A stretch of DNA of 64,000 nucleotides from Bacteroidota bacterium. Lineage in GTDB: Bacteria > Bacteroidota > Bacteroidia > 2-12-FULL-35-15. Shown in pieces: positions 21,724-24,425 of this stretch. The DNA lies in the NCBI GenBank assembly GCA_947476185.1, contig CANJPX010000010.1, positions 574 to 64,573 of the forward strand, in the 5' to 3' direction. The notes beneath the pieces were generated by a model. It made no database searches. It had not been told where the DNA came from and was given only the letters and a program-made list of their open reading frames with translations. The position numbers and the translations under genes were made by a program. The stretch's first letter is position 1, and each line of letters starts with the position of its first letter.

Positions 21724-22800
21724 TTAAACCCCAACACCACCTTCTTTCAATCGTTCTGAATTCTCGGCCAACTGAAGTGCATCGATCATATTTTGAATTT
21801 TGCCATCCATAAAATCTGTAAGATTATACAGTGTCATATTAATACGATGATCAGTAATCCTGTTTTGAGGATAATTATATGTTCTGATCTTTTCGGAACG
21901 ATCACCCGTTGCAACAATGGTTTTTCTACGTTTAGATATTGCATCTAAATGTTTTGTCATTTCGATATCGTACAATTTGGTACGCAACATTTGCATTGCT
22001 ATCTCACGATTTCCAAGTTGAGAACGATCTTGCTGACAAACAACAACGATTCCGGTTGGTTTATGCGTCAACTGCACTTTTGTTTCAACCTTATTTACGT
22101 TCTGTCCACCTGCACCACCGGAGCGCGATGTTTGCATTTCAATATCACCGGGATTTAAAACAACATCCACCTCATCTGCCTCAGGCATAACCAAAACTGA
22201 AGCTGCAGATGTATGCACACGGCCCATTGTTTCGGTCAAAGGAACACGCTGAACACGATGCACACCAGCTTCAAACTTCAACATTCCATAAGCATTGTCT
22301 GAAGTGATCTTGATTATAACCTCTTTGAATCCACCCATTGTTCCATCGTTGGAATCAACTACTTCATACTTTAAGCCTTTTTCATCAAAATAACGACAAT
22401 ACATTCTGAAAAGATCACCTGCAAAAATACTCGCTTCATCACCACCTGTACCGGCACGAATTTCCATAACGGCATTACGTGCATCCTCAGGATCTTTAGG
22501 GACAAGCATTTGACGGATATCATTTTCCATTTGCTCCTTCTTTGGAAGAAGTTCTTCCATATCCATCTTTGCCATCTCTTTCATCTCATCATCTTTTTCG
22601 TTGGCAAAAACGCTCTTATTGAACTCGATATTCTCAACTACATTTTTGTATTCGTGGTAAGCATTTACAACCAATGTAAGATCTTTATATTCTTTATTGA
22701 ATTTTTTAAATTCCTTCATATCGCCAATTACTTTGGGATCCGACAGTTTCTGTTCAACCTCTTCCCAACGTCTTTTTATGGCAGCTAATTTTTCTAACAC
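21724..22800 (-). CDS. prfA: peptide chain release factor 1
   Basis: 358 aa with the GGQ motif ([16 protein letters not shown]) and the RF-1 type PxT-region. N-terminal [22 protein letters not shown]. Confidence 0.9.
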
Positions 22801-22875
22801 TTTTTTTTACTAATTATAAGTTATGAATTATGAGTTGCGAAAGTACAAAAAAAACATGTTAAGAATAGTATTAAT

Positions 22876-23106
22876 TAAAGTCTTCGACTCCGCTCAGACT
22901 GACGTAATCGATTGGAATTTTGTCGTTGTCATGTTGAGCTTAGCCTGTACTGAGCTTTTGTCGAAGTATCGAAACATGTGGGTTAGCTTACGCAAACTCT
23001 TCTACACTTCGTCTGGCTCAGTGCAGGCTAAGCTCAGAGTGACAGCAGCACTTCGACTCCGCTCAGACTGACAATTGTGTTGTTACACTGAGCGGAGTCG
23101 AAGTGC
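22876..23106. repeat. structured non-coding element with nested inverted and direct repeats (possible MITE-like repeat or structured RNA)
   Basis: CTTCGACTCCGCTCAGACTGAC occurs twice (22882 and 23052). Its reverse complement is at 23086-23105, giving an 18-bp perfect stem. Inner inverted repeat TGAGCTTAGCCTGTACTGAGC / GCTCAGTGCAGGCTAAGCTCA (22935 vs 23012). GC content clearly above the local background. Confidence 0.45.
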
Positions 23107-23143
23107 TTTGTAAATTACTTAACTAAATATATTTGCCTCGCCA

Positions 23144-24316: not shown

Positions 24317-24370
24317 TTTTGTTTTCCTGACTTTAAGGTCGGGGCCATATTAAAGACGGGGCCATATTAA

Positions 24371-24410
24371 ATAAAAACATCCCGTAAAAGTACGGGATGT
24401 TTTTTATTTA
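24371..24410. terminator. bidirectional rho-independent terminator (downstream of the OmpA-family gene)
   Basis: Perfect hairpin CATCCCGTA-AAAG-TACGGGATG flanked by AAAAA on one side and TTTTTTATTT on the other. Confidence 0.65.
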
Positions 24411-24425
24411 TTCTATAATAAGAAT

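Follow-up and report, generated by a model that had tools for sequence, protein, structure and literature searches.

The window analysed here is a 64-kb stretch (64,000 nt) of contig CANJPX010000010.1 from a Bacteroidota bacterium, and positions given without a locus name refer to it. Between two genes of its minus strand, prfA and purM, lies a hairpin-repeat element that spans 22879-23107. Along that strand the order is purM, element, prfA, and the purM–prfA spacer measures 343 nt. The element is composed of three simple units (A1, A2 and A3) and two nested compound units (B1 and B2), laid out as one solo unit, one tail-to-tail pair (hairpin H2) and one head-to-head pair (hairpin H1). The unit is about 26 nt long and reads (T/C)GTCA, four variable bases, the core GAGCGGAGTCGA and then the four complementary bases; the 22-mer that an earlier note on this DNA had singled out at both ends of the element is one copy of it. 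The features of the locus are as follows, the strand of a unit being the one that carries the GTCA tag.

21724-22800, minus strand: prfA, encoding a class-I release factor
22838-22854, minus strand: T8-GTACTTTCG block, context and not part of the cluster, matched to the T7-9-GTACTTTTG of relatives by alignment and folds
22879-22904, minus strand: A1, solo simple unit, C-GTCA GTCT GAGCGGAGTCGA AGAC-T; best covariance-model hit (40.8 bits, E = 9e-8)
22927-22977, plus strand: B2, compound nested unit and left arm of H2, TGTCA TGTT GAG-CTTAGCCTG-[TACT GAGCTTTTGTCGA AGTA]-TCGA AACA-T
22978-22995, no strand assigned: spacer between the tails of B2 and B1, apical region of H2, placed from sequence and folds
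22996-23044, minus strand: B1, compound nested unit and right arm of H2, TGTCA CTCT GAG-CTTAGCCTG-[CACT GAGCCAGACGA AGTG]-TAGA AGAG-T
23049-23073, minus strand: A2, chimeric simple unit, T-GTCA GTCT GAGCGGAGTCGA AGTG; covariance-model hit of 34.6 bits with two non-standard pairs flagged
23081-23105, plus strand: A3, simple unit in the opposite orientation, T-GTTA CACT GAGCGGAGTCGA AGTG; covariance-model hit of 35.4 bits
23144-24316, minus strand: purM, encoding a PurM-type AIR synthase

The stem of A1 consists of 4 self-complementary bp closed by an A-T pair, and this unit is also matched by a paired-stem regular expression. In the compound units an outer stem (TGTT/AACA in B2, CTCT/AGAG in B1) surrounds an inner hairpin (TACT/AGTA and CACT/AGTG, respectively). 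The stems of B2 were read from the sequence, and its DNA fold places the outer stem around inner hairpins (−8.3 kcal/mol, z = −3.3); the inner hairpin of B1 was recovered by the regular expression with 4/4 stem pairs. Together, B2 and B1 form H2 (22927-23044, 118 nt), a tail-to-tail pair with its tags pointing outward. The stem of A2 itself is broken and this unit pairs instead with A3 over 20 bp, giving the head-to-head hairpin H1, whose DNA fold reaches −27.9 kcal/mol (z = −11). A2 shares its tag and 5′ stem half with A1 and its 3′ stem half with A3, a chimera suggestive of template switching, or of recombination, inside the 12-nt core that the units have in common. The tag of A3 is GTTA rather than GTCA, those of A1, A2, B1 and B2 being (C/T)GTCA. 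This arrangement of a solo unit, a tail-to-tail pair and a head-to-head pair accounts for the direct and inverted repeats that the earlier note had described.

Most of that description was borne out by measurement. The 22-mer CTTCGACTCCGCTCAGACTGAC is present in two copies on the plus strand, at 22882-22903 and 23051-23072, with an inverted copy carrying three mismatches at 23082-23103; dinucleotide shuffles of the window contained zero matches to it. The terminal stem-loop proved stronger than claimed, pairing over 20 perfect bp (23047-23066 with 23088-23107) with arms that can be extended to 28 nt at 89% and a 5-nt gap, and the originally reported 18 nt, 14-nt loop and 12-nt distance were slightly off. 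The inner inverted pair is likewise real (22927-22955 and 23016-23044, 29 nt each, 86% complementary), with an enclosed length of 60 nt rather than about 50 and one mismatch between the quoted 21-mer and its partner. The GC content of the element (0.49-0.52) does exceed that of its flanks (0.27-0.38), and the 82-aa open reading frame (ORF) at 22823-23071 matches no Pfam family, in agreement with the view that no plausible protein is encoded. Folding of both strands, proposed in the same place, gave energies 10-12 standard deviations better than shuffles: −104.9 kcal/mol on the purM/prfA sense strand (z = −10) and −122.3 kcal/mol on the opposite one (z = −12). The Rfam scan proposed alongside it returned zero gathering-score matches in the window, and below threshold (E < 10) the hairpins drew only chance hits to microRNA precursors and one small nucleolar RNA family. 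With filters off, a covariance model built on the simple unit found only A1, A2 and A3 in all 64 kb (E 1e-7 to 3e-6); its next-best hit had E = 0.16.

Copies of the unit in other genomes were sampled by scanning for the core plus TGAC tag, with the flanks left free, in viral contigs and then in one genome per species. The counts that follow (166-167 units; 148 for covariation) come from the matches listed. The pattern TCGACTCCGCTCNNNNTGAC was found in at least 120 stretches of species-representative genomes, with more than 10 phyla among the matches listed, and the narrower pattern TCGACTCCGCTCAGNNTGAC in 22 stretches of viral contigs. The matches listed include the Bacteroidota genera Flavobacterium, Pedobacter, Chryseobacterium, Algoriphagus, Chitinophaga, Hymenobacter and others, together with members of the Acidobacteriota, Verrucomicrobiota, Planctomycetota, Zixibacteria, Calditrichota, Latescibacterota, Omnitrophota and Chloroflexota and a few Proteobacteria. 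Alternative cores of the same shape (GAGCGAAGTCGA, GAGCGCAGTCGA and GAGCTTGTCGA) and longer loops occur alongside the main one, and nested copies hint at a possible target preference for insertion 3′ of GTC. When the core and its common variants were searched for as literal sequence in the text of the literature, only chance primer matches were obtained.

The search pattern did not include the far half of the stem, and the sample is therefore unbiased with respect to stem pairing. At each of its four positions this half was complementary in 83-96% of 166 distinct units; a fifth, A-T pair was present in 59% of the units, and the tag was spelled TGTC in 76% and CGTC in 10%. Across 148 units, 86% of stem cells were paired, compared with 58% after shuffling (0/500 shuffles reached 86%). 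The covariation score of the stem was 0.80, against 0.25 for shuffled units and at most 0.17 for structures slid by 1-3 columns. Read on the GTCA strand, G.T pairs outnumbered A.C pairs by 22 to 6, a bias in the sequences that favours the GTCA strand as the one that would fold. The cores of hammerhead and other small ribozymes, the tRNA T-arm and the CsrA GGA-loop site were considered and rejected, as the conserved positions misfit and gene orientation is unconstrained.

The genomic distribution of the units is mostly intergenic. In low-GC loci, about 90 of 105 units fall between genes, in convergent, divergent and same-direction spacers, and their orientation relative to the flanking genes is without strong bias (32 versus 22). 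About half of the units stand in pairs or arrays, of which 32 are tail-to-tail, 22 head-to-head and 17 head-to-tail. Five units were found in 408 kb sampled for the presence of purM only, and none in its shuffles. Larger arrangements were also seen: a head-to-tail array of five units with a 26-27-nt period (L066:1424-1553), a block of about 500 nt that mixes whole units with repeated half-units (GTGCTCGACCTGACAAA; L081:3090-3600) and four long-loop units in tandem (L236:1150-1420). Such tandem arrays may mislead repeat or CRISPR finders. The 22 viral stretches (L001-L022, from IMG/VR contigs) carry the exact core with paired stems, mostly as solo units beside the start or end of a gene; the repeats may travel between hosts with phages or prophage-like regions.

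The units are linked to genes for small GIY-YIG nucleases. In the first case, a 101-aa GIY-YIG gene is bracketed by units in a locus rich in them, and overall 6 of the 120 listed unit-seeded loci hold a GIY-YIG gene in a unit–gene–unit arrangement. These unit-bracketed genes, each coding for about 100 aa, are located as follows.

L138, 389-868: unit-bracketed GIY-YIG gene
L118, 2038-2510: unit-bracketed GIY-YIG gene
L130, 1644-2014: unit-bracketed GIY-YIG gene
L066, 1424-1968: unit-bracketed GIY-YIG gene
L096, 2492-3139: unit-bracketed GIY-YIG gene
L041, 2400-3060: unit-bracketed GIY-YIG gene, adjoined by a nested unit resembling B1 and B2

In the usual layout the start codon is preceded at 60-90 nt by a forward unit and the stop codon is followed, at most about 20 nt away, by an inverted one, with the tags outward. 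The outward tags of these brackets resemble terminal inverted repeats. A Pfam tally of 103 small ORFs lying at most 150 nt from a unit revealed GIY-YIG as the sole recurrent family (6 members), all others having at most 2. The purM control loci contained no GIY-YIG gene with units. One further unit-adjacent ORF, in a Flavobacterium metagenome-assembled genome (L024:3881-4462), contains NUMOD4, a motif with which homing endonucleases bind DNA.

The association also held when the search started from the protein. A profile search with the nuclease returned thousands of homologues, and all eight picks, four from each of two subfamilies, were flanked by units on both sides. In the first four (from named genomes) the flanks were units or long-loop variants. 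The second subfamily was reached through a frameshifted copy in an Acidobacteriaceae locus; its four picks were chosen for lacking unit-coded tails and were still flanked on both sides. As a negative control, a phage-borne subfamily (GKGAKYT type) had units at 0/8 genes. Among the best 120 homologues, 38 carry unit-encoded peptides, typically a C-terminal GFDSAQPD, and in many members of the second (Acidobacteriota-type) subfamily the C-terminus reads ...PSLRSG or ...LRSAQDDK and the tag supplies the stop codon with its TGA. These units are a hazard for annotation, as they yield spurious ORFs such as the 82-aa ORF of the window and false tails (...GFDSAQPD, ...PSLRSG) on annotated nucleases.

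The unit-associated nucleases match PF01541 only, NCBIfam has no specific model for them, and the solved structures closest to the Bacteroidota members are the UPF0213 proteins 1ZG2 and 1YWL. In two Bacteroidota lineages a unit-flanked GIY-YIG gene lies between hsdR and hsdM of a type I restriction-modification system (L230:1467-1881; L231-L233, with the gene at 1501-1815 in L231 and L232). In these loci the tags point inward, and three to four tandem repeats of about 75 nt, with one unit each, follow downstream.

Relatives were collected by a metagenome scan with PurM, which yielded 80 loci. In the three closest (L144-L146; PurM 85-92% and PrfA 87-90% identical) purM is still followed by prfA, and the spacers, 120-131 nt long, contain no unit. 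Ten contigs from several samples (L240-L249), closer still with PrfA at 96% protein and 85% DNA identity, have a spacer of 143 nt, again with no unit. The spacer of the window exceeds those of the relatives by about 200-220 nt, which is about the length of the element. Since the closest relatives found lack the cluster in this spacer, it was gained, or replaced an ancestral terminator hairpin, recently within the lineage.

A simple terminator scan missed the long-loop hairpins of the relatives, so their spacers were folded directly. All those examined have a hairpin abutting T7-9, followed by GTACTTTTG, a combination reminiscent of a purM terminator. The T8 block of the window has no abutting hairpin, and the cluster lies 24 nt upstream of it. 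The T7-9-GTACTTT(T/C)G block upstream of prfA is kept in L144, L145, L146 and L240, while the sequence preceding it varies freely. The T-run block, upstream of prfA, resembles TAnnTTTG, the −7 promoter element of Bacteroidetes, and in the relatives it may overlap the −7 box of a prfA promoter. At 24366-24411, between the start of purM and the end of the upstream OmpA/TPR gene, the window has a separate 21-nt inverted repeat (ATTAAATAAAAACATCCCGTA / TACGGGATGTTTTTTATTTAT, arms 4 nt apart) with A-runs and T-runs on either side, which looks like an ordinary two-way terminator.

Taken together, these results make it probable (roughly 70%, in our estimate) that the element is a mosaic of short DNA hairpin repeats, similar to a bacterial interspersed mosaic element (BIME), from a nuclease-linked family of the type formed by the Ssn nucleases and their Ssn-related motifs (SRM). 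Each unit combines a (T/C)GTCA tag, a freely varying complementary stem of 4-5 bp and a constant GAG...CGA core (here GAGCGGAGTCGA). By analogy with the Neisseria enzyme SsnA (PMC11893778), the units would act as single-stranded DNA (ssDNA) hairpin sites, on the GTCA strand, for a cognate GIY-YIG nuclease that would cut a few bases 5′ of the tag. A unit-flanked nuclease gene may then be the source or keeper of the dispersed copies, whose spread and persistence would resemble those of repetitive extragenic palindromic (REP) sequences with the tyrosine transposases associated with REPs (RAYTs). A local effect is conceivable, at low confidence: from their position in the purM 3′ region, upstream of the promoter-like block of prfA, the two very stable hairpins might shield the 3′ end of purM or impede read-through into prfA.

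Several observations weigh against this interpretation. The 64-kb window contains no GIY-YIG gene, so the cognate nuclease of this organism is assumed to be encoded elsewhere in its genome, and the window holds a single unit cluster. Lone units have nearest-neighbour energies of −1 to −2 kcal/mol, no better than shuffles, and are not stable hairpins; pairing within the unit is accepted because covariation supports it, whereas thermodynamics does not. By profile comparison the Bacteroidota nuclease clade, only a candidate member of Ssn (cd10448), is equally near the Acidobacteriota-type clade (E = 1.6e-30) and the unit-less phage clade (E = 5.6e-31). Divergence of the relatives' spacers obscures the exact insertion boundaries and any target duplications. 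The published SRM pattern, HGTCWYN(0-2)YYVSBRHN(0-5)WNVSBRGN(0-2)RNCYNB, matched 0/167 units and nothing in the window, although the same regular expression matched the canonical Neisseria repeat (NTS) used as positive control. Finally, the Neisseria repeat depends on its stem sequence and can do without its loop, whereas the units described here have a free outer stem and a fixed core.

The extreme fold energies of both strands (z = −10 and −12), and a position between two same-strand genes at which the cluster is probably transcribed, are what a conserved structured RNA in the purM–prfA spacer would lead one to expect, be it a small RNA (sRNA), a cis-regulatory leader or an attenuator. We nevertheless hold this to be the least probable of the alternatives. 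The element has no useful Rfam match, is absent from the same spacer in all of the at least 13 related contigs examined, with flanking proteins 85-96% identical, and its units occur elsewhere in both gene orientations (32 versus 22) and in divergent spacers, all of which argues against a conserved RNA gene and with it against the stable structured sRNA of the earlier note; the structure is wholly explained by inverted copies of a dispersed DNA repeat. Of the options raised there, the closest was a mobile repeat resembling a MITE, a miniature transposable element with inverted repeats, since the family is dispersed and multi-copy and the element is missing from the spacer of relatives. A single 230-nt MITE, derived by deletion from an insertion sequence and inserted as one piece, would also agree with the amount of extra DNA, and H2 alone (22927-23044) has outward tags like terminal inverted repeats. 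What recurs, however, is only the unit of about 26 nt, with different stems and spacings each time, and the B-arm sequence GAGCTTAGCCTG is absent from the approximately 1.1 Mb of loci searched. Nor are the two ends of the 230-nt block inverted repeats of each other (A1 and A3 are, but A1 is a solo unit 22 nt from B2), and no target-site duplication is visible at borders whose exact position the diverged spacers of relatives blur. The element appears to be a mosaic of units and not one transposon with terminal inverted repeats and target duplications, and insertion as one piece is quite unlikely.

A classical cluster of REPs, BIMEs or REPINs (paired REPs), mobilized by a RAYT (an IS200/IS605-type Y1 HUH transposase), would share the architecture seen here, namely short tagged hairpins in alternating orientation, intergenic, in head-to-head and tail-to-tail pairs, and Bacteroidetes do carry RAYT subclasses 2.4 and 2.6 (PMC6006769). 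Against it, the tag of the units is (T/C)GTC, not GT[AG]G, the REPs of Bacteroidetes subclass 2.6 differ (for instance GCTAGCGCGAGCG...; PMC6006769), and no Y1 transposase appears among the 25 families listed for unit-adjacent ORFs; nor did an earlier survey find a transposase linked to CGTC-tagged REPs (Di Nocera 2013, PMC3733652). We regard such an origin as very unlikely. It has also to be considered that the cluster, whatever its origin, now acts mainly as a purM terminator or 3′-end stabilizer in place of the ancestral terminator hairpin. The relatives have a hairpin abutting T7-9 at the same position, the T8 of the window survives without one and with the cluster 24 nt upstream, and REPs of E. 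coli are reported to function as elements of 3′ untranslated regions. However, no T-run follows H1 or H2 directly, the terminator scan of the element was empty, and an effect of this kind would be secondary, leaving the distribution of the family, its covariation and its link to nucleases unexplained. As the main account of the element it is unlikely, albeit the most plausible of the alternatives; as a side effect of the repeat, the terminator or attenuator for purM that the earlier note had proposed is possible.

For this locus, reading the element as a mosaic of nuclease-linked hairpin repeats removes a candidate sRNA or riboswitch: its striking structure is that of repeat DNA. It also indicates that a gene's terminator hairpin can give way to a cluster of this kind inside a lineage in which the release-factor genes retain 85% DNA identity. 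At a broader scale, we propose tentatively, at odds somewhat short of even, that TGTCA-N4-GAG(N5-6)CGA-N4′ repeats represent a second, uncatalogued specificity class of Ssn-type systems, in which the nuclease would read the constant core and accept whatever outer stem is complementary. Such systems would be frequent in Bacteroidota and would occur in Acidobacteriota, Verrucomicrobiota, Planctomycetota and other phyla as well. If this is true, a large fraction of them escapes the published SRM counts, and the enzymes could serve as ssDNA cutters whose sites are partly free and defined by the stem.

The system to which the units are best compared is that of Neisseria. There SsnA, a stand-alone GIY-YIG nuclease of 94 aa, binds the dRS3/NTS repeat, CGTCATTCCCGCGMAVGCGGGAATCYRG, as ssDNA only and on one strand only and cleaves a few bases upstream of it; the system limits natural transformation (Chenal 2025, Nat Commun, PMC11893778). 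SRM flank ssnA homologues in many phyla in an NTS–ssnA–NTS arrangement, which the same authors liken to insertion sequences and REP/RAYT systems; Bacteroidota are unmentioned in the main text of that paper. The units described here share with SRM a short hairpin preceded directly on its 5′ side by an unpaired HGTC tag, a multi-copy, mostly intergenic and often clustered distribution in both orientations, and, for the family as a whole and not the window copy, the motif–gene–motif arrangement around a stand-alone GIY-YIG gene of about 100 aa in several phyla. The excess of G.T over A.C pairs also fits recognition of one DNA strand. They differ in that the NTS, CGTC-ATTCCCGC-loop-GCGGGAAT-CYRG, has a conserved 8-bp stem, whereas the units have only 4-5 Watson–Crick pairs and a conserved internal GAG...CGA core. 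One Calditrichota contig has a canonical NTS-type motif with an 8-bp stem (CGTCATCCCCGGCTTGACCGGGGATCCAG; L059:1319-1347) in the same 8-kb stretch as units of the GAG...CGA type, and both classes can therefore coexist in one genome.

Two groups of REPs also resemble the units. CGTC-tagged REPs, whose tag is often TGTC, are described from five phyla, including Bacteroidetes and Chlorobi, with no transposase linked to them (Di Nocera, De Gregorio and Rocco 2013, BMC Genomics, PMC3733652). The likeness extends to the tag, the A-T first stem pair, the intergenic position, the paired units, the G-T stem pairs and the lack of an associated transposase gene. The families described there have 8-9-bp stems and 4-5-nt loops, whereas the units reach an 8-bp stem only if the G.A, A.G and G-C of the core count as stem, and they have no clear CCA tail; identity of the units with one of these families, for example that of Gramella forsetii, is only a possibility. 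With REP/BIME/REPIN sequences and their RAYTs (Nunvar 2010; Bertels and Rainey 2011; Ton-Hoang 2012; Quentin 2018) the units share the tagged hairpin, clustering in mosaics and a nuclease gene in single copy between repeats of its own (REPtron). These systems differ by a GTAG tag and by an enzyme of the HUH Y1 fold rather than GIY-YIG, and REP sequences are usually lineage-specific whereas the core of the units is common to many phyla.

The kind of system is thus already known, and its association with GIY-YIG genes is here an independent rediscovery. The new aspect, as judged from sequence, appears to be the class of units itself, which goes undetected by the published SRM pattern. With the same core, a freely covarying stem and GIY-YIG neighbours across phyla, these repeats extend the 2025 picture of Ssn nucleases and SRM to a class of sequences that the pattern misses.

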